Source of the DNA: Acidobacteriota bacterium
GTDB taxonomy: Bacteria; Acidobacteriota; Thermoanaerobaculia; Gp7-AA8
Direction: 5' to 3'
DNA: 64,000 bases
Assembly: GCA_019244185.1 (NCBI GenBank)
Contig: JAFATB010000006.1
Coordinates: 544,001-608,000 of the forward strand
Shown here: positions 11,402 to 39,979 of the stretch, in pieces
Position numbering within the stretch: the stretch's first letter is position 1
How the letters are laid out: each line of letters begins with the position of its first letter
The notes under the pieces: model-generated
Databases searched by the model: none
Seen by the model: only the letters and a program-made list of their open reading frames with translations
Told to the model about the DNA's origin: nothing
Position numbers and translations under genes: made by a program

Positions 11402-12889
11402 ATGACTTCGCGCCGCATGCTCGCAGGCATCGCGCCGTGGCTGCTCGCCCTCGGCGGCACGGCGCTCGTGACGGCCGCCGGCCGCGCGATGGACGTCAAC
11501 GCGAACGCCGCCGGCTTCGCGTTCCTCATCGTCGTGCTCGTGGCTTCAGTCCGCGGCAGTCTCCTCGGCGGCATGGTCGCCTCGATCGCGGCGACGCTCT
11601 GCTACAACTACTTCTTCTTCCCGCCGCTCTACACGTTCACGATTCACGAGGCGGCGAACTGGGTCGCGCTCGCGGCGTTCCTCGTGACGTCGGTGACGGT
11701 GAGCCGGCTCGTCATCGCCGCGCGCGTGCAGGCCGAGCGCGCCGAGCAACGGCGCAACGAGGTCGCGACGCTGTACGGCCTCAGCGTCGAGCTCTTCACG
11801 GCGACCAATCGCGTCGGCGCGCTCGGCGAAGCGGCCGGCCGCGCGCTCTCGCTCTTCGGCGCGCGCGAGGGCGGGCTCGTGCTGTTCGAAGGCACGCCGT
11901 ACCGTCAGAACGTCATCTGGTGGCTCGGCGACAAACCGGACGAGATGGAAGACCTCATCGCCGGCGTGGGCCGTCATCAGGAGCCGCTCGAGTTTCCCTC
12001 GCCCCTCGGCCGCGACGTGCATCTTCCGCTGCTCGTCGGCGGCAAGACCGCCGGCGCGCTCGTCGCGCGCGGCACGGAAGCGTCGCTCCCCGCGCTCGTC
12101 TCCGCCGCGCGTCTCGTCGCACTCGCCGTCGAACGCGAGCGCTTCATCGAAGAGCACGCGCACATCGAGGCGCTGCGCGAGAGCGAAACGCTGAAAACCT
12201 CGCTCCTGCGCGCGATCTCGCACGACCTCACGACGCCGCTGACCGCGATCACGATTCAGACGGAGGGGCTGCGAAGGCGCGCGGCGAACGACGCGGAGCT
12301 GCGCGTGGCGGTGGCGGGGATCTCTGACGAGACCGCGCGCCTGCACCGCCGCATCGACAACCTCCTCGCGATGGCGCGCCTCGAAGCCGGCAAGTCGCGC
12401 CCGCGCCGCGAGCCGACGCCGCCCGCGGACCTCTTCCACGCCGTTCGCGAGAACCTGCCGCTCGTCTTTCAATCGCGTCCCGTGACGATCCGCGTCGACG
12501 ATGACTGTCCCGACGCGAACGTCGATCCCGCGCTCGCGCTGGAGATCCTCGTGAATCTCATCGAAAATGCACACCGCGTCTCGCCGCCCGACGCGCCGCT
12601 CGAGCTGACCGCGCGGACGCATCCGCTCGATCGCGCGATGGTGCGCATCGAGGTGCTCGACCGCGGCCCCGGCGTCCCCGCCGGACTCGCCGACGCGGAC
12701 GGCAACCTCGTCGCCGGTGCCACGAGCGACGTCGCGCAACGCGGACTCGGACTCGAGATCGCCCGCAGCCTCGCCGCCGCGAATGGAGGCAGCATCGGCA
12801 TCGCCCCGCGGGCGGGCGGAGGGGCGGTGGCGCGGCTGGACGTGCCGTCCGCGCCGCTGCCGGTGGTGGCGGAGGAAGAAGCGTCATGA
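11402..12889 (+). CDS. KdpD-type membrane sensor histidine kinase lacking the N-terminal KdpD/USP domains
   Basis: Four-TM DUF4118-like region (YNYFFFPPLYTFTI), GAF-like region, ISHDLTTPLT H-box, NLIENA, DRGPG, GLGLEIA. Confidence 0.88.
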   Translation: MTSRRMLAGIAPWLLALGGTALVTAAGRAMDVNANAAGFAFLIVVLVASVRGSLLGGMVASIAATLCYNYFFFPPLYTFTIHEAANWVALAAFLVTSVTVSRLVIAARVQAERAEQRRNEVATLYGLSVELFTATNRVGALGEAAGRALSLFGAREGGLVLFEGTPYRQNVIWWLGDKPDEMEDLIAGVGRHQEPLEFPSPLGRDVHLPLLVGGKTAGALVARGTEASLPALVSAARLVALAVERERFIEEHAHIEALRESETLKTSLLRAISHDLTTPLTAITIQTEGLRRRAANDAELRVAVAGISDETARLHRRIDNLLAMARLEAGKSRPRREPTPPADLFHAVRENLPLVFQSRPVTIRVDDDCPDANVDPALALEILVNLIENAHRVSPPDAPLELTARTHPLDRAMVRIEVLDRGPGVPAGLADADGNLVAGATSDVAQRGLGLEIARSLAAANGGSIGIAPRAGGGAVARLDVPSAPLPVVAEEEAS

Positions 12890-13572
12890 CTCTCGCGCCT
12901 CTCGTCCTCGTCGTCGACGACGACCCATCCATCCGCCAGTCGCTCCAGCGCGAGCTGCACGAGCGCGGCTACACGACCGTCGCGGGAAGCGACGGGCTCG
13001 AAGGCATTCGGGCGTTCGACACGCATGCGCCCGATCTCGTGCTCACCGATCTCTCCATGCCGCGCGCCGACGGCTTCGCGCTCATCAGCGCGATCCGCGC
13101 GAAGGCGCGCACGCCGGTCATCGTGCTCTCCGTGCGCGGCGAGGACGCGGACAAGATCCGCGCGCTCGATCTCGGCGCGGATGATTTCGTGACGAAGCCC
13201 TTCTCCGTCGCCGAATTGCTCGCACGCGTCCGCGCGCAGCTGCGACGCACCGCCGCCGCGGCGAAGACGCTCGCGTTCGACGGCCTCTCCATCGATTTGG
13301 AACGCCGTCGCGTCGTGCAGCACGAGCGCGAGATTCACCTCACGCCCACCGAGTACTCGCTGCTCGAGCTGCTGGCGACGAACGCGGGACGCCCGCTCTT
13401 CACCGACCACATCATCGGCCGCATCTGGCACGACGCGCCCGGCACGACTGCCGACACGGTGCGCGTGCACATGAGCTCTCTGCGCAAGAAGATCGAGCCC
13501 GATCCGTCGTCGCCGCGCTACATCGTGACCGAGCCGTGGGTCGGCTACCGCTTCATCGCCGAGCCGGTGTAG
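12886..13572 (+). CDS. kdpE: KdpE-like OmpR-family response regulator
   Basis: VVDDD, LTDLSMP, GADDFVTKPF, RKKIEPDPSSPRYIVTEPWVGYRF; overlaps the kinase stop. Confidence 0.88.
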   Translation: MTLAPLVLVVDDDPSIRQSLQRELHERGYTTVAGSDGLEGIRAFDTHAPDLVLTDLSMPRADGFALISAIRAKARTPVIVLSVRGEDADKIRALDLGADDFVTKPFSVAELLARVRAQLRRTAAAAKTLAFDGLSIDLERRRVVQHEREIHLTPTEYSLLELLATNAGRPLFTDHIIGRIWHDAPGTTADTVRVHMSSLRKKIEPDPSSPRYIVTEPWVGYRFIAEPV

Positions 13573-13623
13573 GCGTCCCCACGCCTAGGCACGATCCGGC
13601 GAGAGCGCGGCCGGCATCGGACC

Positions 13624-13781
13624 TCATTCTCATTCTGCGTTCTGCGTTCTGCGTTCTTCCTTCGCTTTTCCTCGTACCGACACCTCCCATCCACGCGGCG
13701 GCGCGCGAGTGCGAGTCGAGGCTCAGTCGGCGCGCACGGGCCGGAATGAAGAACGCAGAACGCAGAATGAAGAATTGAGAA
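13624..13781. repeat. Heptamer-based inverted-repeat element (TTCTGCG arm and CGCAGAA arm), REP-like
   Basis: TCATTCTGCGTTCTGCGTTCTGCGTTCTTC near 13630 and GAATGAAGAACGCAGAACGCAGAATGAAGAATTGAGA at 13744-13780; the same unit recurs at 56830-56930. Confidence 0.75.
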
Positions 13782-13860
13782 GCCCGCCCTGAAGAGACGC
13801 CGCGCCTCGGTGCTCCTCCAATCCTTCATTCCCGCATGCACACCACGCGTTCGGGTCTTT

Positions 13861-14133
13861 TCAATAGTGATAACGCGCCTGGAGAAAGTCGATGCGATCG
13901 TTTGTGACGAGATACACGATGCGGTGCTCCTGCGTCAGCCGTCGCGACCATGTGCCCGACGCGAGGTACTTCAGTGGTTCCGGTTTGCCGATGCCGGTGA
14001 AAGGCTCGCGAAGAACGGCCTCGACGATTTCCAGAGCGCGCAACGCCACTCTGCGGTCGGTCTCGACCCAATAGCGGAGGTCCTCGCGGAACTCGGACTG
14101 GAACACCGCCACGCGAGTGCGCTTCGCCGCCAC
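13861..14133 (-). CDS. yoeB: Txe/YoeB family mRNA interferase toxin
   Basis: EDLRYWV, PFTGIGKPEPLKY, WSRRLTQEHRIVY, QARYHY. Confidence 0.93.
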   Translation of the reverse strand: MAAKRTRVAVFQSEFREDLRYWVETDRRVALRALEIVEAVLREPFTGIGKPEPLKYLASGTWSRRLTQEHRIVYLVTNDRIDFLQARYHY

Positions 14134-14136
14134 CGG

Positions 14137-14424
14137 TTACTCTGCAGCGTCAAGACCCAAGTCTGCGCGGAGCTTCTCGAGAGCGTCGGCCCGCCCCCCT
14201 CCGGCCTGGGCACGGCGAAGGGCCGCGAGAAGCCGTTGGGCATTCCTGGGAGATCTGAGGAGATGGGCGGTCTCGATCAATCCGCGCAGCTCGTCAGCCG
14301 CGATGAGCGCCACGTCTGCGCCTTCGCGACGATGAATGATGACCTGCTCGCGGTTCTCCGCGACCTCGTCAAGCAGTGTCTTCAGGTTCGCTCGCGCTTG
14401 GGTGTAAGTGGTTTCGATCGCCAT
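14137..14424 (-). CDS. yefM: Phd/YefM family antitoxin
   Basis: TYTQARANLKTLLDEV, VIIHR, ETAHLLRSPRNAQRL; directly upstream of yoeB. Confidence 0.92.
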   Translation of the reverse strand: MAIETTYTQARANLKTLLDEVAENREQVIIHRREGADVALIAADELRGLIETAHLLRSPRNAQRLLAALRRAQAGGGRADALEKLRADLGLDAAE

Positions 14425-14442
14425 GTCGATTCTCTCGCTCAC

Positions 14443-14462
14443 CTGTACAGGCGGACTGTACG
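14443..14462. promoter_or_regulatory. Putative YefM-YoeB operator (TGTACA-type palindromes)
   Basis: CTGTACAG at 14443-14450 and TGTACG at 14457-14462, just upstream of the antitoxin start; TGTACA is the core of known yefM-yoeB operators. Confidence 0.6.
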
Positions 14463-14537
14463 CCATATTCCGGTTGCACACAATTGGAGGTCGCCACGTT
14501 GTCCGCTTGACATGCGCATTCACACCACGCATTCGGC

Positions 14538-14915
14538 TTCACGCGACGCATTCCGGCTTTTACGCGTCCAATTCCCGGATTCATCCGACGCGTTCTGGTT
14601 TTCGCGCGTCCAATTCCCGGATTCACGCGACGCGTTCTGGTTTTCATGCGACCGATTCCGACTTTCACGCGTCGCGTTCTGGCTTTCACGCGTCCAATTC
14701 CCGGATTCACGCGACGCGTTCTGGTTTTCACGCGACGCGTTCTGGTTTTCACGCGACCGATTCCGGCTTTCATGCGTCGCGTTCTGGTTTTCATGCGTCG
14801 CGTTCTGGCTTTCACGCGTCGCGTTCTGGCTTTCACGCGACCGGTTCTGGTTTTCATGCGACTGATTCCGGCTTTCATGCGTCGCGTTCTGGCTTTCACG
14901 CGACCGATTCCCGCC
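14538..14915. repeat. 21-bp degenerate tandem repeat, 18 units
   Basis: Contiguous units such as TTCACGCGACGCGTTCTGGTT, TTCACGCGTCCAATTCCCGGA and TTCACGCGACCGATTCCGGCT, with no spacers. Confidence 0.92.
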
Positions 14916-15156
14916 TCGCCGCCCCCGCGTGACAGGAGGATGCGGCCTCGGCCCGGCCGCGCTCAGCTGCGCGGCGCCACGCGATGAGAAGTCCATGCAT
15001 GGCAGCGATGTGACGGCGCCGTGTCAGCTGCAGCCCGGCGCCGCTTCGCATCTTCACGATTTCTTCCGAAACCATTTCGCGTTTCCGCGCGCGATCCTTC
15101 GCATTCCTTAGCGACCGCGCGGCGACGCCGCTGTTGCGATGAGTCAGGAGGCCGCC

Positions 15157-15576
15157 ATGACGACCCTGACTCACGCACCGGTACCGTTCGCGGACGTCCG
15201 CCATCACCCGCTCACGACCGCCGGGCTCGTGCTGCTCTTCTGGCTTTTCGCGGCGATGCTCGCCGCGACGTGTCATCGCCTGCTCGACGCGCGCTCGCTC
15301 TCCGGCAGCGCCGTCGCGACGATCTTCGCGGTGGCCGGCGTCGCGTACGCGTACACGCGACTCTGCGCGCGCTGCGCCGGCATCGCGCACGCGCTCGGCG
15401 TCGGCAGCGCGTGGCTCGTGCTGGCCATCGCCGCCGAGCTCGCGATCACGAGCCGCACCGGCCACGGCTGGTACGCGCTCCTCGGCACGCCCGCGCATCC
15501 ACTGCTGCGCAACGTCTTTCTCTTCTTATGGGTCTTCGCGCCGGCGCTGTTCGCGGGACGGGAGCGCGACGCATGA
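15157..15576 (+). CDS. Four-TM membrane protein, first gene of the kdp operon
   Basis: AGGAGG RBS before ATG 15157; hydrophobic segments; stop overlaps the next ATG. Confidence 0.7.
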   Translation: MTTLTHAPVPFADVRHHPLTTAGLVLLFWLFAAMLAATCHRLLDARSLSGSAVATIFAVAGVAYAYTRLCARCAGIAHALGVGSAWLVLAIAAELAITSRTGHGWYALLGTPAHPLLRNVFLFLWVFAPALFAGRERDA

Positions 15577-16601
15577 AACGTCTCGCCTTTCTGCTGTTCG
15601 CGTGCTGCGCCGCGTTGCGAGCGCACGCCGAAGACGCGCCCACGTTCTCCGGATTCGTCGACGTCGCGGCGGTCTACAACGCCAACGCGCCGGCGAGTCA
15701 CGAGAACTTCATCCCCGGCACCGGGACTTCGGCGAAGCGGGCGAACGAGCTCGCGCTCAACCTCGCCGAACTGCAGTGGACGCGCGCGGTGAGCGCCGAG
15801 CAGCCGGTCGGCTTCACGCTCTCGGTCGTCGCCGGCGACGGGGAAACCGTCGTGCACGGCAGCGACTCGCTGCGCTACGTCTACCAGGCGTCGGTCGCAT
15901 ACCGGCTGCCGGACGGCGTCGTGCTCGAAGCGGGCGTCTATCCGTCGCACATCGGCTTCGAGAGCCTCTTCTCGAAAGACAACTGGAACTACACGCGCTC
16001 GTGGCTCGGCGAGCTCTCGCCGTATTACCAGACCGGAATCAAAGCGAGCTACGCGTTCAACGCGCACTGGTCGGCGCAGCTGCACGTGCTCAACGGCTGG
16101 CAGCTCGTGCACGACAACAACGACGCGCGCGCGTTCGGGACGCAGCTCGCGTACACGAGCGACCGCCTGACCGCGTCGCTGAACACGTTCATCGGTCCCG
16201 AGCTCGCGGATGACAACAAATCACTGCGCACGCTCGGGGACGTCGTCGCCATCTATCGACTGACACCGCGACTCCAACTCGGCGGCTCGTACGACCGCGG
16301 CTCGCAGCAGCTGCCTGAGACGCGGGCCGCGCGCTGGCGAGGGCTCGCCATGTATGCGCGCTACACGCTGAATGCGCGTCACGCATTCGCACTGCGCGCG
16401 GAGCAATTCCGCGACGACGAAGGCGCGATCAGCGGAACGGGACAGACGCTGCGCGAAGCGACGCTGACGTGGGAAATGCGTCCACGCGACGCGCTCGTGC
16501 TCAAGCTCGAAACGCGCTACGACGATTCGAACACGCGCGTCTTCGCCGAGGACGCACGTGGCCGGTTCCTCGCGCTCATCGGCGCGGTGGTGACCTTCTG
16601 A
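15573..16601 (+). CDS. Outer-membrane beta-barrel porin (BBP2/OmpL-like)
   Basis: Signal peptide MKRLAFLLFACCAALRAHA; SHIGFES, NWNYTRS, PYYQTG, NGW, DNN motifs; C-terminal Phe. Confidence 0.8.
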   Translation: MKRLAFLLFACCAALRAHAEDAPTFSGFVDVAAVYNANAPASHENFIPGTGTSAKRANELALNLAELQWTRAVSAEQPVGFTLSVVAGDGETVVHGSDSLRYVYQASVAYRLPDGVVLEAGVYPSHIGFESLFSKDNWNYTRSWLGELSPYYQTGIKASYAFNAHWSAQLHVLNGWQLVHDNNDARAFGTQLAYTSDRLTASLNTFIGPELADDNKSLRTLGDVVAIYRLTPRLQLGGSYDRGSQQLPETRAARWRGLAMYARYTLNARHAFALRAEQFRDDEGAISGTGQTLREATLTWEMRPRDALVLKLETRYDDSNTRVFAEDARGRFLALIGAVVTF

Positions 16602-33990: not shown

Positions 33991-35472
33991 TCAGCTGTTC
34001 GGGGTGAGGATATACGTCACCAGTCCGCCGTGGCGCCGCGTGGGATCGGCGACGAGGTGGAACTCCTTCCCGCTGACGTGTTTGATGCCGATGCTCAGAT
34101 GGGTACAGGTGCCGTTGATCTTGAGCTCATTTCCGTTGCCGGGAGTGAGTTTGCAGTCGATCTTGTCCCACAGGCTGTAGTAGTCGGCTTTGGCCATCGG
34201 GTCGTAATACTTCTTGAGAAGCTTGACCAGCACCGCGGCGTGGCTCGTAAAGACGAAGAACCCGTCTTTCTTGATGCCGTTGTATTCGATATTGCTCTTG
34301 ATCTGCGGATCGATGAACGTAGGGACTCTCACAATCGCCGACTGGTTCTGCGGGAGTACATAATCCGTCTCGGCGTCCACGCCGTACTTCTGGAGAATCG
34401 TGGCGAACGCATTCGCGAGCGTAATGCAGCTTCCGTAGCGGTCCAGTGAATTCGGGTTCTCCATGAAATCCTCGGCCTGGTCGTCGGTGCCGATGAACGC
34501 CGTCCCATTGACCAGCGCGGACGCAGAGTACCGGAAGCCATAGTTCGTGAATTCTTTGAACAGCCTGTCGACGAACAGCCGCAGGCTGGCCTTGTCGTTT
34601 ACATGGACGGCCGTGGATCCGTAATAGAGCTCGCCCTTCTTGCCTTTGGTCACGCTACGCGTGATGTACCCCATCGGATCGCGCTGCTGCCATTGAATAT
34701 TGCTCCAGCCAAGGCGCAGGTGCGTCAATCGCGTATCGAGCGTGGTGAGGTCGTTTTCGAGCGCGTTGTACTGCCCTTCGTTGTACGCGGCCCGATCGAG
34801 ATTGTTGAATCGCTGCTGGATCTGGACCAATACGGTCGGCGGCCGCATCCAGGAACGGTTCGTCGCAAAGTCATTGAGCGTATTCGCGATTTTCGTGCGC
34901 AGATTGTCGCGCAGCGTATTGATGCGCGTCTCCTGTTCGTTGTAGCCCTGCATGAAGCCGAGCAGCCAATTGAAGCGGTTGTATGTGAGCGGCTGGGCCG
35001 TACCCGGCGGGAGCCGCCGCGGCGGCGCGGCATCCACGCGCTGCACGGCCTGAATCGCCATCCGCTCCGCCTCCGCTTCCAGCATCGCATCCTGCACGAC
35101 CGCCACGCCGCTGCCGCTTACATTCCGCACGCGTCCCGTCCGCTGCTGCACGACGTGCGCGAGCTCGTGCGCGAGCGTATGCCGCCCATGCGGCGTGGCC
35201 GGATCGTACTGGCCGGCCGCGAAATGAATGTGCGAGCCGTGCGTGAACGCCTGCGCGCGGATCGCCTGCGCCACCGCGCTCGACGGATGGACGCGCACGT
35301 GATCGAACCGCTGCCCGAACGCCGCTTCCATCCGCTGCCGTACATCGGCCGCCAATGGCTGCCCACCCTGCACCGGCAACCGCGCCGCCTCCTGCGGCGA
35401 GAGCCGCGCCGGAACCTGTGCCCCGCGAGGAAACCGCCCTTGAATCACCGAGCCGTTCATCGGATGAGCCAT
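33991..35472 (-). CDS. DUF4157 (eCIS core domain) protein with putative Cys-His-Asp effector domain
   Basis: GQPL...RMEAAFG...VRVH...AQAFTHGSHIHF...LAHELAHVVQQ...LEAEAE; C-terminal GSCITLA...SHA...YDP; C-terminal half is more AT-rich. Confidence 0.8.
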   Translation of the reverse strand: MAHPMNGSVIQGRFPRGAQVPARLSPQEAARLPVQGGQPLAADVRQRMEAAFGQRFDHVRVHPSSAVAQAIRAQAFTHGSHIHFAAGQYDPATPHGRHTLAHELAHVVQQRTGRVRNVSGSGVAVVQDAMLEAEAERMAIQAVQRVDAAPPRRLPPGTAQPLTYNRFNWLLGFMQGYNEQETRINTLRDNLRTKIANTLNDFATNRSWMRPPTVLVQIQQRFNNLDRAAYNEGQYNALENDLTTLDTRLTHLRLGWSNIQWQQRDPMGYITRSVTKGKKGELYYGSTAVHVNDKASLRLFVDRLFKEFTNYGFRYSASALVNGTAFIGTDDQAEDFMENPNSLDRYGSCITLANAFATILQKYGVDAETDYVLPQNQSAIVRVPTFIDPQIKSNIEYNGIKKDGFFVFTSHAAVLVKLLKKYYDPMAKADYYSLWDKIDCKLTPGNGNELKINGTCTHLSIGIKHVSGKEFHLVADPTRRHGGLVTYILTPNS

Positions 35473-35535: not shown

Positions 35536-35611
35536 TGGCTGTGGCGGGAGGGCTCGAACCTCCGACCACCGGATTAACAATCCGGCGCTCTACCAACTGA
35601 GCTACACCACA
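35536..35611 (-). tRNA. tRNA-Asn (GTT)
   Basis: Reverse complement TGTGGTG TA GCTCAGTTGGTAGAGC G CCGGA TTGTTAA TCCGG TGGTC GGAGG TTCGAGC CCTCC CGCCACA GCCA folds as a cloverleaf with encoded CCA. Confidence 0.96.
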
Positions 35612-37598: not shown

Positions 37599-38011
37599 TC
37601 ATCAGGACGAAAGGGCCGCGATCATGGCAACCGCTCACAAGCGCCGGATTCAGGGACTGCACCGGCGGCATCTCAATTTGCATTCGAAGTCGGTTTAAAG
37701 CCGGAACATCGACAGCGGACCGCCGTGCGATCCGCCGAACAGCGCCGAATCTTACGCGCCGCCGCAGAGAACCGCGACAGCGATCAGGGCGCCGACCGCA
37801 AAACCATTCCAGAAGTCCGTGGCGGCTTCGCTGATGGGGGCGACGACGTTTTCCATTTCTTCGATCATGAGCATGTGAGTGATCTCCTTTTCCATGTAGT
37901 GGGCGATTCGATTGGGGGTGTAACTGCCGGGGACATGACAACCGGACGCCGAGGGGCTACTGCATCGTGGCGCTGAGGGTTGCCGTGATCGCGGCTCTCT
38001 CCTCCTGATGA
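37599..38011. repeat. 34-bp inverted-repeat pair (37599-37632 / 37978-38011) enclosing precursor gene A2
   Basis: TCATCAGGACGAAAGGGCCGCGATCATGGCAACC versus the reverse complement of the right arm TCATCAGGAGGAGAGAGCCGCGATCACGGCAACC (30/34 identical). Confidence 0.85.
37752..37874 (-). CDS. RiPP precursor peptide type A (copy 2): MLMIEEMENVVAPISEAATDFWNGFAVGALIAVAVLCGGA
   Basis: Manual translation; AAAGGAG RBS; paralogue of 39857..39979. Confidence 0.88.
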   Translation of the reverse strand: MLMIEEMENVVAPISEAATDFWNGFAVGALIAVAVLCGGA

Positions 38012-38015
38012 CTCC

Positions 38016-39242
38016 TTATTCGTAACGAAGACATTCGATCGGATCGAGCATGGAGGCTTTCCACGCCGGATACAGACCGAAAAGAATTCCGATGGCCGCG
38101 GGGACGAGGAACGCGCTGCTGACGGCCCACAACGGAATGGGACTGAACGAGCCGAAGAATCCGTGGCTGATCGCGCCGCCGGCCGCATAGCCGAGCGCAA
38201 CGCCGGCCGCTCCGCCGAGGAGCGATAAGAGCGACGCTTCAATGAGGAACTGCACCAGGATGTCGCGCGGCTTGGCGCCGACGGATTTCCGGATGCCGAT
38301 CTCACGCGTGCGCTCGGTGACCGTGACGAGCATGATGTTCATGATGCCGACGCCGCCGACGAGCAGCGCGATCGACACCATGCCGCCGGCCACGGCGCCG
38401 ATGAAGCGCGTAATGCCGGAGACGATGGAGACGAACTGCCGCTGGCTGAAGACGCGGAAGCCTTCCTGCTCTTTCGGTTTGAGGCCTTTGACGCGGCGTA
38501 ATGCGGCGGTGACGAGCTCCGCACCGTCATCCGCGCTGACCTTCGAGTCGATGCGCACCTGAAAGAACAGCTGATGGCGCTGCTCTTCGGTGAGCATCGG
38601 CAGGCCGGTGCGCAGCGGGATGAGGATCATGCTGTCGGGATCGGCGCCGAGGGTTGCGCCGCGTTCCTCCAGCACGCCGATGATCTCGAGTCCGAGAGAC
38701 GGCGTCTGAATGATCTTGCCGATGGGATTGCCTTTGATGGCGAGCTTCTCGAGCACCTTCGGGCCGACGATGACCACTTTGCTGCCGAGGCGGATCTCCG
38801 CCGGGACGAAATTGCGTCCGGTCTTGACGTTGATGTCGTTGAGCTCGAGATAGGTCTCGTCCGACATCAGCATGTTGACGGAGGTGGTGTGGCCGTTGGC
38901 CTTGAGATCGGTGCTCGTCAATGCGAGGGGTGTGACCTGGGTGACCTGGCGCACGAGGCGTTGCACGGCCTTCATGTCGTCTGCGGTCAGGTCGCGATTG
39001 CGGACTTTCCCATATTCCTCGAGCGGAACGTCGCCCGGCAGGAGAGGGCGGACGAGCAGCGTCTGGCTGCCGGCGCGCTCGATTTCCTGCAGGATGCTGC
39101 GCTCCATTCCCTGGACGAGGCTGACCACGGCGATGACGCTGGTCACGCCGATGACGATGCCCAGGGAGGTGAGGATCGAGCGCATTTTGTTCGCTTGGAG
39201 CGATTTGAGCGCCGCACGCAATGGCTCGATGAGGCCGAACAT
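38016..39242 (-). CDS. MacB/FtsX-family ABC transporter permease (YknZ-like)
   Basis: NKMRSILTSLGIVIGV, LLVGGVGIMNIMLVTVTERTREIGIRK, FLIEA, LDPIECLRYE; AAAGGA RBS before ATG 39242. Confidence 0.92.
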   Translation of the reverse strand: MFGLIEPLRAALKSLQANKMRSILTSLGIVIGVTSVIAVVSLVQGMERSILQEIERAGSQTLLVRPLLPGDVPLEEYGKVRNRDLTADDMKAVQRLVRQVTQVTPLALTSTDLKANGHTTSVNMLMSDETYLELNDINVKTGRNFVPAEIRLGSKVVIVGPKVLEKLAIKGNPIGKIIQTPSLGLEIIGVLEERGATLGADPDSMILIPLRTGLPMLTEEQRHQLFFQVRIDSKVSADDGAELVTAALRRVKGLKPKEQEGFRVFSQRQFVSIVSGITRFIGAVAGGMVSIALLVGGVGIMNIMLVTVTERTREIGIRKSVGAKPRDILVQFLIEASLLSLLGGAAGVALGYAAGGAISHGFFGSFSPIPLWAVSSAFLVPAAIGILFGLYPAWKASMLDPIECLRYE

Positions 39243-39291
39243 GGGATGAGGTCCTTTCTGTAAATTAATTGAGCGTTTGTGAACCCGAGGC

Positions 39292-39325
39292 CCCATTACG
39301 GCCTTCCGGAGAAGGCCGTAATGGG
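39292..39325 (-). other. Perfect 15-bp hairpin with C-UCCG-G (UNCG) tetraloop on the coding strand
   Basis: CCCATTACGGCCTTC-CGGA-GAAGGCCGTAATGGG; no U-tract follows. Confidence 0.75.
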
Positions 39326-39450
39326 ATGGCCGGAACTGCATGGCGATCCGCAGAAAAGAGCCGCGACCACGGCGATCAGCAACCCGTCAGCTTCACACCC
39401 ACAGCAAAACTGACGACGACTCGCCAAGGGACTCTTTCAGCCGAAGCCGA

Positions 39451-39573
39451 TTACGACGAGAGAGCCGCGATGATGATGATCGTCGCCGCGCCGGCGCCAG
39501 CACCCGCGAGCCACGTTCCGACGCTGGGGGCAACCACTTCTTCCATCTCTTCGATCATGAGCACGTTGTTCAT
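39451..39573 (-). CDS. RiPP precursor peptide type B (copy 2): MNNVLMIEEMEEVVAPSVGTWLAGAGAGAATIIIIAALSS
   Basis: Manual translation; AAGGA RBS; near-identical to 39647..39769 with mostly synonymous differences. Confidence 0.88.
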   Translation of the reverse strand: MNNVLMIEEMEEVVAPSVGTWLAGAGAGAATIIIIAALSS

Positions 39574-39646
39574 TGGAGTCTTTCCTTTTCTCTGAAGTTG
39601 GTGAAACGTTGTTGTTTAGGGACCGGGTCTGTTGGTGGACGACGGA

Positions 39647-39769
39647 CTACGAGGAGAGCGCCGCGATGATGATGATCGTCGCCGCGCCGGCGCCAGCGCC
39701 CGCGAGCCACGTTCCGACGCTGGGGGCAACCACTTCTTCCATCTCTTCGATCATGAGCATGTTGTTCAT
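39647..39769 (-). CDS. RiPP precursor peptide type B (copy 1): MNNMLMIEEMEEVVAPSVGTWLAGAGAGAATIIIIAALSS
   Basis: Manual translation; AAGGA RBS; core identical to copy 2. Confidence 0.88.
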   Translation of the reverse strand: MNNMLMIEEMEEVVAPSVGTWLAGAGAGAATIIIIAALSS

Positions 39770-39856
39770 TGGAGTCTTCCTTTTCTTTCTTTTAGTTAGT
39801 TTGTGAAAGGGCCCGAAATGAATCAATGCCCGTACTGCGTGTGAAGCAGAGGCGTC

Positions 39857-39979
39857 TTATGCGCCGCCGCAGAGGATCGCGCCCGCGATGAGCGCGCCGA
39901 TGGCGAAGCCCTGCCAGAAGTCGTTCGCGGCCTCGCTGATCGGGGCAACGATGGTTTCCATCTCTTCGATCATGACCAT
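39857..39979 (-). CDS. RiPP precursor peptide type A (copy 1): MVMIEEMETIVAPISEAANDFWQGFAIGALIAGAILCGGA
   Basis: Manual translation; AAAGGAG RBS; shared MIEEMExxVAP leader. Confidence 0.88.
   Translation of the reverse strand: MVMIEEMETIVAPISEAANDFWQGFAIGALIAGAILCGGA

Follow-up and report, generated by a model that had tools for sequence, protein, structure and literature searches.

Paired peptide precursors beside an M50 protease–ThiF fusion enzyme in Acidobacteriota: a probably daptide-related family

Precursor genes and fusion enzyme at the locus

The window analysed here, a whole stretch of 64,000 nucleotides from an Acidobacteriota genome (assembly GCA_019244185.1, contig JAFATB010000006.1, positions 544,001 to 608,000), carries a cluster in which four short open reading frames (ORFs) lie close to a gene for a 789-residue enzyme joining an M50 intramembrane protease to a ThiF-like adenylating domain. 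All genes from 45006 down to 37752 are encoded on the minus strand and are tightly packed in an operon-like fashion. An earlier note on this DNA had singled out the four ORFs as peptide precursors of two types, A and B; their coordinates and strand are confirmed, and the translations match the quoted cores letter for letter. In order of transcription, with a permease gene between B2 and A2, the precursors are:

Precursor A1: 39857..39979, minus strand; 40 residues; leader MVMIEEMETIVAP, core ISEAANDFWQGFAIGALIAGAILCGGA
Precursor B1: 39647..39769, minus strand; 40 residues; leader MNNMLMIEEMEEVVAP, core SVGTWLAGAGAGAATIIIIAALSS
Precursor B2: 39451..39573, minus strand; 40 residues; core SVGTWLAGAGAGAATIIIIAALSS, identical to the B1 core; leader with V4M relative to B1
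Precursor A2: 37752..37874, minus strand; 40 residues; core ISEAATDFWNGFAVGALIAVAVLCGGA

A leader of the form (L/V)MIEEMExxVAP is common to all four. Under a longest-ORF rule A2 would have 47 residues (start 37895) and B1 would have 59 (start 39826); however, a ribosome-binding site (RBS) common to A1 and A2, AAAGGAGAT, lies directly 5' of the ATG of M(L/V)MIEEME, and B1 and B2 also have one RBS in common, so that a length of 40 residues is most likely for all four. Apart from one non-synonymous leader codon (V4M), B1 and B2 are set apart by three synonymous changes and by different stop codons (TAA versus TAG), and their likeness collapses beyond the stretch from RBS to stop. A1 and A2 are separated by 12 synonymous and 8 non-synonymous codon differences. 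Lys, Arg and His are absent from the cores. Acidic residues in the A core are limited to one Glu and one Asp, the last 20 residues of the A peptides being free of acidic residues and ending in CGGA; the B core has no charged and hence no acidic residue, and the B peptides contain no Cys. When 71,336 peptides from the six-frame translation of the 5.3-Mb genome were searched with a profile hidden Markov model (HMM) built from the four peptides, no others were matched; the model also picked up homologues beside the homologous enzyme in other genomes, which argues against chance ORFs. Matches of A1 and A2 to the NF041806 model (daptide_Mpa2) were weak and below the cut-off (E 0.008 and 0.002, respectively).

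The enzyme gene opens the cluster and encodes two recognition elements of the kind known from peptides made on the ribosome and modified after translation (RiPPs), here termed RiPP recognition elements (RREs), in the following arrangement:

Fusion enzyme: 42637..45006, minus strand; 789 residues; RRE1, M50, linker, RRE2/clamp and ThiF/E1-like domains
RRE1: about residues 27-81; winged helix in the AlphaFold2 model
M50 site-2-type intramembrane metalloprotease: about residues 126-419; HExxH at 194-198, NxxPxxxxDG at 287-296
Linker between M50 and RRE2: disordered in the AlphaFold2 model
RRE2/peptide clamp: about residues 436-524; strand-plus-helix
ThiF/E1-like adenylating domain: about residues 532-770 in the AlphaFold2 model

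The best family for residues 23-407 was NF041824 (daptide_HExxH), yet at 228 bits it stayed below the cut-off of 300. Residues ~532-782 matched ThiF/MoeB/E1 families of NCBIfam, and Pfam recognised PF02163 and PF00899, the latter with 172 bits. When the AlphaFold2 model (mean pLDDT 79) was compared with the PDB using Foldseek, MccB of the microcin C7 pathway ranked first (E 4.8e-21, target-normalised TM-score 0.83, ~350 columns including the clamp), followed by PaaA and then by ThiF and MoeB; MccB was likewise the top phmmer match in the PDB for residues 430-789 (E 7.5e-36). The protein database contained 45 further clusters of the fused protein or its fragments (44-72% identity), and 30 relatives out of these clusters (43-71% identity) were aligned. 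Across this alignment HExxH and N..P....DG are invariant in the protease half, as are GxGGxG (570-575), D594/D596, R605, K618 and D663 in the ThiF half, together with four Cys (706, 709, 777 and 780) that phmmer aligns with the CxxC pairs of MccB; these four zinc-site Cys, C585 and C676 make up the invariant or nearly invariant Cys of the ThiF half. Because the protease and adenylation motifs are invariant across the 30 relatives, both halves look catalytically competent, and the adenylating ThiF/E1-like enzyme invoked in the earlier note is indeed present, with its ATP-binding motifs invariant. RiPP enzymes of the ThiF-like adenylyltransferase (TLAT) group are characterised by the same layout, an RRE/clamp ahead of a ThiF fold whose nucleotide-binding site is intact. 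A complex predicted for two copies of the ThiF half (residues 430-789) with A1, ATP and Mg (score 0.03, mark 0.32) weighs neither way on binding.

This conservation bears on the idea that the ThiF half is a docking scaffold only, like the E1-like domains of YcaO cyclodehydratase systems, and that the products are two-peptide bacteriocins which undergo cleavage and export but no modification. YcaO clusters provide examples of ThiF-like domains whose role is confined to binding peptide (PMC12150305), and the cluster of the window has neither another tailoring gene beyond the enzyme nor room for one. A scaffold would nevertheless sit poorly with nucleotide-binding and catalytic motifs that are all invariant at 43-71% identity, and no YcaO gene was found in the cluster of the window or beside its acidobacterial relatives; we regard this explanation as scarcely probable. 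We instead favour, with moderate confidence, a reading in which the four ORFs are precursors of a two-peptide (A + B) RiPP system, an evolutionary relative of the daptides with different tailoring chemistry, whose C-terminus is activated with ATP by the ThiF domain.

Relatives in three phyla and their C-terminal tails

Loci related to the cluster were sought in one genome per species and in metagenome contigs with the 30-relative alignment as query, which succeeded where a scan of genome contigs with the single protein as query gave no match. Both the M50 and the ThiF halves were found at 42 loci in Acidobacteriota, Bacillota and Actinomycetota. The halves are fused in Acidobacteriota and encoded by separate genes, adjacent or overlapping, in clostridial, lactococcal, Actinomyces and other loci; the fused set comprises L001-L005 and the metagenome loci L090-L099, and 11 further genome loci have the adjacent or overlapping arrangement. 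The few named database clusters of the fused enzyme come from Thermoanaerobaculia and Bryobacteraceae metagenome bins. The enzyme is single-copy in the source genome, and a sample of 400 other genomes from the phylum contained no full-length fused homologue, the five genomes with matches having one half only. The system is thus sparse. Its spread over three phyla, the protease–ThiF fusion and the daptide-like leader and protease had all been missed in the earlier note.

Elsewhere in the same phylum, ORFs of 770-820 residues at four loci (L085, L087, L088 and L089) have an RRE-M50 region in their N-terminal 300-376 residues and C-terminal halves that are not ThiF, and the M50 relatives P0047, P0049, P0057 and P0066 are fused to cNMP-binding or HlyD-like domains. 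Judging by these domain arrangements, the RRE-M50 module seems to have been combined with several different partners.

The coupling of protease and ThiF domain, by fusion or by gene adjacency, would be explained by head-to-tail macrocyclisation, in which M50 frees the alpha-amine of the core, this amine attacks the C-terminal acyl-adenylate made by ThiF, and small circular hydrophobic peptides result. The alpha-amine is, moreover, the sole nucleophile common to every precursor, including those lacking Cys, Trp and acidic residues. On the other hand, such a closure is without precedent among the ThiF-like RiPP enzymes covered in the available text of two reviews (PMC12596934, PMC12250964), the homologous daptide protease is simply a leader peptidase, and the conserved Cys and clade-fixed tails described below would be left unexplained. 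We rate this route as improbable.

The favoured two-peptide reading draws on the genes next to the enzyme. Considering the 37 of 42 loci with at least 600 nt 5' of the protease gene, one B-type gene followed by at least one A-type gene (two in L002) lies directly 5' of the M50/ThiF genes and on the same strand in 32, which supports the claim of the earlier note that the two types belong together. Many of the 32 are near-duplicates, amounting to ~25 distinct peptide pairs by our own reading of the output. The count disregards six weak extras with E >1 (at L001, L099, L106, L123 and L125, plus a match of E 14 on the L034 peptide), and the L034 peptide was counted as a single-type precursor and not as half of a pair. 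An RBS-like motif precedes 29 of 30 homologous precursors. In the window itself the layout is rearranged, with the precursors 3' of the enzyme gene and both types duplicated, and relatives mostly have one B and one A; the 2:2 dosage stressed in the earlier note therefore holds for the window and is local to it.

Another 46 small proteins came from searching the protein database with a profile, and the pooled set, made non-redundant on the last 30 residues, comprised 60 distinct peptides. Their leader follows the pattern (I/V)xE(hydrophobic)E...(A/E)AP. The best-conserved feature of the core is the GxxxG motif that the earlier note had pointed out, G24 and G28 each being conserved in ≥90% of 29 peptides. 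The tails are fixed within clades: LCGGA (6/6), AALSS (5/5), ACSS (6/6), IALC (10/11), CGGC (4/4), (A/L/M)CD (8/8) and ICAC (3/3). Besides the peptides of the window, these counts include four distinct relatives that end in LCGGA (P0090, P0093, P0095 and P0106) and four that end in AALSS (P0098, P0117, P0119 and P0122). Since distinct relatives keep LCGGA and AALSS, these tails are a better sign of selection than the comparison of B1 with B2, from which purifying selection had been proposed: five differences, one of them non-synonymous, are too few on their own. As to the Cys, GG and SS that the earlier note wished to see aligned, Cys is frequent and the endings CGGA and ALSS are constant in their clades, while GG occurs in some A clades only (CGGA, CGGC, GGC) and is never terminal.

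A Cys lies within the last four residues of 19/21 distinct A-type and 31/39 distinct B-type peptides, at a distance of 0, 1, 2 or 3 residues from the end depending on the clade (C, CD, CSS/CAS/CAC and CGGA/CGGC, respectively). It is absent from the C-terminus of the B clade of the window (ALSS), the L001 B peptide (IFTS), P0131 (LLAS) and P0101 (ISLW). The conservation of the type A Cys is thereby upheld for the region near the end and not for a fixed position. This bears directly on the small C-terminal thiolactone that had been proposed: once ThiF has adenylated the A peptide at its C-terminus, the fourth-last residue, Cys, would attack and close a Cys-Gly-Gly-Ala ring. The near-constant Cys of A-type peptides, the invariance of LCGGA in the A clade of the window and the record of a ThiF-like enzyme, GrcB, that makes peptide thiolactones (PMC12596934; PMC12250964) speak for such a ring. 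It would, however, be unfeasible in peptides that end in Cys (IALC, FFC, GIC, GGC), the same enzyme is shared by B peptides without Cys in the window and in L001, and the bond proposed for GrcB joins a terminal Cys to the side chain of a Glu, the terminal carboxylate taking no part in it. Because the Cys distance varies by clade and the window B peptides have no Cys, a ring of fixed size cannot be the shared chemistry, although it is possible for CGGA; we consider this reading unlikely. A thiolactone is one option among several for the final chemistry.

Most cores combine an Asp or Glu within the first eight residues with a Cys at the end, which is what activation of a side chain would call for: ThiF, in the manner of GrcB and PaaA, would adenylate a conserved Asp/Glu close to where the core begins (in A within xDFxxG, in B relatives within SEEAxW), and the C-terminal Cys would close a large thiolactone. 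GrcB provides the precedent (PMC12596934). The window B core, with neither an acidic residue nor a Cys, runs counter to this idea, as do P0117, P0131 and the L001 B peptide, which are acidic but lack Cys; the same three peptides led us to discard the idea that Cys and acidic residues are strictly lost together. The ring would also have to span ~20 residues of predicted helix, and we hold the mechanism to be quite improbable. Activation of the C-terminal carboxylate, as favoured here, is suggested by three considerations: MccB, the nearest solved relative, as well as IndF and EnfB, act at that site (PMC12596934, PMC12150305, PMC11256085); the tails are short, made of small residues and fixed by clade; and the window B core offers no other carboxylate.

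Neighbouring genes and a proposed mechanism

After the enzyme gene follow, in this order, a 142-residue protein, a Yip1/YknW-like protein, a HlyD/MacA adaptor, A1, B1, B2, a permease and A2. The features of the cluster other than enzyme and precursors are:

Predicted multi-pass (four-transmembrane) membrane protein of ~142 residues: 42209..42637, minus strand; candidate immunity protein or membrane partner
Yip1/YknW-like membrane protein: 41407..42174, minus strand; PF04893 at 29 bits (cut-off 28.6), NF052650 (YknW_fam) at 32 bits, below 110
HlyD/MacA-type periplasmic adaptor: 40139..41410, minus strand; TIGR01730 at 172.7 bits (cut-off 94.9), HlyD Pfam domains
MacB-type permease (MacB_PCD + FtsX) with no ATPase domain: 38016..39242, minus strand; aligns to residues 254-646 of the 648 of MacB
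Two strong RNA hairpins in the gap between B2 and the permease gene: 39287..39427, minus strand; terminator-like matches; a candidate site of attenuation or processing that follows the precursor genes
Hairpin 1: 39287-39322; perfect stem of 15 bp
Hairpin 2: around 39410-39427; stem followed by a T-run

The 142-residue protein had no match in Pfam or NCBIfam and none at ≥0.9 in an Atlas search. Its gene also lies 3' of the enzyme gene in L001, L002, L004, L005 and the fused metagenome loci L090-L099. In loci with split M50/ThiF genes the ThiF proteins have a membrane tail at the C-terminus; a correspondence between this tail and the 142-residue protein was considered and rejected, hhalign giving a probability of 0.5% and hence no detectable homology. 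In L129, L136, L149 and similar Actinomyces-like loci, the A precursor and M50 genes are separated by one for a predicted membrane protein of 70 residues (MNPEPAP...), which may be an immunity candidate different from the 142-residue protein of the window.

The permease ORF extends to 39341, its likely start being M34 at 39242, which is preceded by an RBS. Neither the window nor L001, a syntenic locus with its permease at 14928-16187, contained a gene for an ATP-binding cassette (ABC) ATPase to serve the permease, the nearest ATPase-like ORF on the contig lying ~50 kb away. The hairpin region folds with a z-score of -3.77, and none of 200 shuffles was equally stable. A sigma-54 activator gene at 47829-48761 was the reason for a sigma-54 promoter scan; the window contained 5 matches where 18 were expected, none of them close to the cluster, and a sigma-70 promoter scan gave none between 37400 and 45400. 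In the 560-nt gap 5' of the fusion gene, a small ORF of ~67 residues (45310-45520, plus strand) diverges from the cluster and, read by eye, appears hydrophobic and membrane-like. The upstream flank, beyond 45006, is of housekeeping character (holA-like, rlmH, the sigma-54 activator, rsfS, nadD, obg), and the downstream flank holds an MFS transporter, a tRNA-Asn (35536-35611) and, just past the latter, a 493-residue eCIS_core/DUF4157 protein (33991-35472, minus strand) with an N-terminal PF13699 match of 93 bits, an HExxH-like motif and a long C-terminal region without a family. At the Lachnoclostridium locus L079, ~2 kb 3' of the M50/ThiF/ABC genes, three ORFs (12108-15817) were judged by eye to resemble a PqqD-like protein, a B12-binding radical SAM enzyme and a YcaO protein; they could constitute a second RiPP cluster or provide extra tailoring for the same peptides.

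For translation, cleavage site, activated carboxylate, nucleophile, export and activity we infer the following course. The acidic leader, (I/V)EE(M/L)ExxVAP, would dock on the RRE domains of the 789-residue membrane enzyme, and the MccB-like ThiF domain would adenylate one of the peptide's carboxylates at the expense of ATP. The likeliest target is the alpha-carboxylate at the C-terminus, where a short tail consists of small residues (GGA, LSS). A nucleophile would then displace AMP, with the net effect that the negative charge of the C-terminus is removed or masked. The M50 domain would cleave the leader off after Ala-Pro, the set of YknW-like protein, HlyD adaptor and MacB-type permease would export the hydrophobic helical cores, and A and B may act jointly in the membrane through their GxxxG motifs. 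In short, the hydrophobic peptides are probably processed by a fusion of a membrane protease with an ATP-using activating domain.

Several observations weigh against this reading. Of the 37 loci with sufficient 5' sequence, five lack the B-then-A pair. Three divergent ones from uncultured Clostridiales (L034, L046 and L158) have a single, different precursor type with a short Ala/Val-rich core that ends in GGE or GVGD and lacks Cys, its gene being present twice in L046 and in L158; the only peptide at L095 ends in Cys, and L138 has a B peptide only. A single ThiF domain would need to accept two tails, GGA and LSS, and the near-universal Cys is not explained by simple activation of the C-terminus. 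ThiF-like GrcB and PaaA activate side-chain carboxylates instead (PMC12596934). The export step as encoded is incomplete, the permease being without an ATPase in the window and in L001. Finally, the cores carry no cationic residue, unlike typical cationic membrane-active peptides and daptides; this counts against a classical antimicrobial role, and a signalling or receptor-dependent role is possible.

Comparison with known systems

Lactococcin G, the plantaricins and other two-peptide bacteriocins of class IIb have a double-glycine leader, which a C39-peptidase ABC exporter removes, and their peptides are unmodified. The family resembles them in that two different small peptides, each with GxxxG, are encoded side by side (B and A at 32/37 loci, G24/G28 in ≥90%), with a small membrane protein nearby. 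It differs from them in a leader ending in Ala-Pro instead of double glycine, in the lack of any C39 domain or ABC ATPase in the cluster, in the presence of a tailoring enzyme and in cores that are not cationic. In the ubiquitin-like/E1 pair the substrate ends in Gly-Gly and the E1 carries a catalytic Cys for a thioester. The earlier note had seen an echo of such termini in the A peptides; with GG confined to some A clades and never terminal, the analogy is weak. The export genes recall YknWXYZ of Bacillus subtilis, which has a role in SDP toxin resistance: a Yip1/YknW-like protein, a HlyD-type adaptor and a MacB/FtsX-type permease occur in the same order, and A1, B1 and B2 occupy the slot that yknY takes in yknWXYZ. 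In contrast to that system, an equivalent of the YknY ATPase is missing from both the window and L001, and the score of the YknW model is far below its cut-off.

Five reactions of ThiF-like RiPP enzymes have been described, namely formation of a phosphoramidate (MccB), an indolizidinone (PaaA), a Glu-Cys thiolactone (GrcB), a cyclic imide or C-terminal amide (EnfB) and a Trp indolylamide (IndF) (PMC12596934; PMC12250964; PMC11256085; PMC12150305). The window enzyme shares with these enzymes the RRE/clamp plus ThiF architecture, the ATP motifs and the zinc Cys pairs; it departs from them in being membrane-bound and fused or adjacent to an M50 protease, and in its substrates, which in this family are hydrophobic helices of 21-27 residues and of two types. 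In the available text of the same four papers, none of the five reaction types is associated with an M50 protease or with daptide-like substrates. The substrate hallmarks are also different. Neither the terminal Asn of MccB substrates (0/60 distinct peptides) nor the EEN of PaaA substrates is present in the family, nor are the WWIII/NWYFI tails of EnfB and IndF; the terminal Cys with Glu four residues upstream that marks GrcB substrates has no counterpart in the window, where A ends in CGGA and B lacks Cys. For Streptococcus, Wang et al. 2024 mention a 'CxxxC type' that is uncharacterised and has a 'TLAT-peptidase fusion'; it may overlap with the family described here (PMC11256085). Our literature search, judged in part from titles and abstract openings and not extending to the figure and tables for that fusion, returned no paper on an M50–ThiF pairing with such precursors.

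It is tentatively conceivable that the reaction falls outside the five described types, as would a Cys-dependent thioester cross-link within or between A and B helices, a head-to-tail closure that goes along with removal of the leader, or a step in which an amine of the membrane receives the activated C-terminus. If so, the paired hydrophobic peptides of Acidobacteriota, Bacillota and Actinomycetota would constitute a new RiPP class. In either case two 40-residue peptides and one enzyme make a compact target for new chemistry at peptide C-termini, and the Cys found near the C-terminus in ~5/6 of the distinct peptides marks where to look. Two-peptide systems have, in addition, rarely been described from Acidobacteriota, a poorly explored soil phylum.

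The closest parallel is with the daptides (MpaA1-3 with MpaBCDM and MpaP; hominicin), in which bacteria rebuild the C-terminus of hydrophobic helical peptides and thereby render them membrane-active. Daptides have the leader motif ELExMEAP, a site-2 protease to which an RRE is fused, a mean of 2.3 precursors in each cluster and tailoring by MpaB, C, D and M; peptides from multi-precursor clusters act synergistically on membranes, including in haemolysis, and the class requires an invariant C-terminal Thr, which is converted to Dmp (10.1101/2023.03.08.531785). Both systems appear to combine a number of short precursors in one cluster, an acidic leader that closes with Ala-Pro (IEEMExxVAP in the window resembling ELExMEAP), hydrophobic helical cores, ABC-type transporters and a leader protease in which an RRE is joined to a site-2-type intramembrane metalloprotease, NF041824 being the closest model for the protease half of the window enzyme; tailoring would likewise be aimed at the C-terminus. 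There are also differences. A terminal Thr occurs in 0/60 distinct peptides, those of the window ending in Ala and Ser, so that no Dmp terminus is possible; no MpaB, C, D or M-type gene is among the ORFs of 37752-45006, every one of which is accounted for, and a ThiF-like adenylating domain stands in their place; the window cores lack cationic residues; and the protease half scores 228 bits against a cut-off of 300. With neither a terminal Thr nor Mpa tailoring genes, the system is not a daptide. The word 'ThiF' is absent from the text of the daptide papers examined, and the literature search returned no paper joining daptides and ThiF.

Annotation rules can misname members of the family: two clostridial precursors pass the NF041808 model, 'daptide-type RiPP' (31.8 and 29.5 bits, cut-off 25), although neither ends in Thr, and the 12 kb read around them showed no gene for daptide tailoring. 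The locus belongs to an uncharacterised, daptide-related, probably ThiF-tailored two-peptide RiPP family of at least three bacterial phyla, which keeps a leader, protease and precursor layout in the style of the daptides and in which a single ATP-dependent ThiF-like domain would replace their whole C-terminal tailoring pathway.

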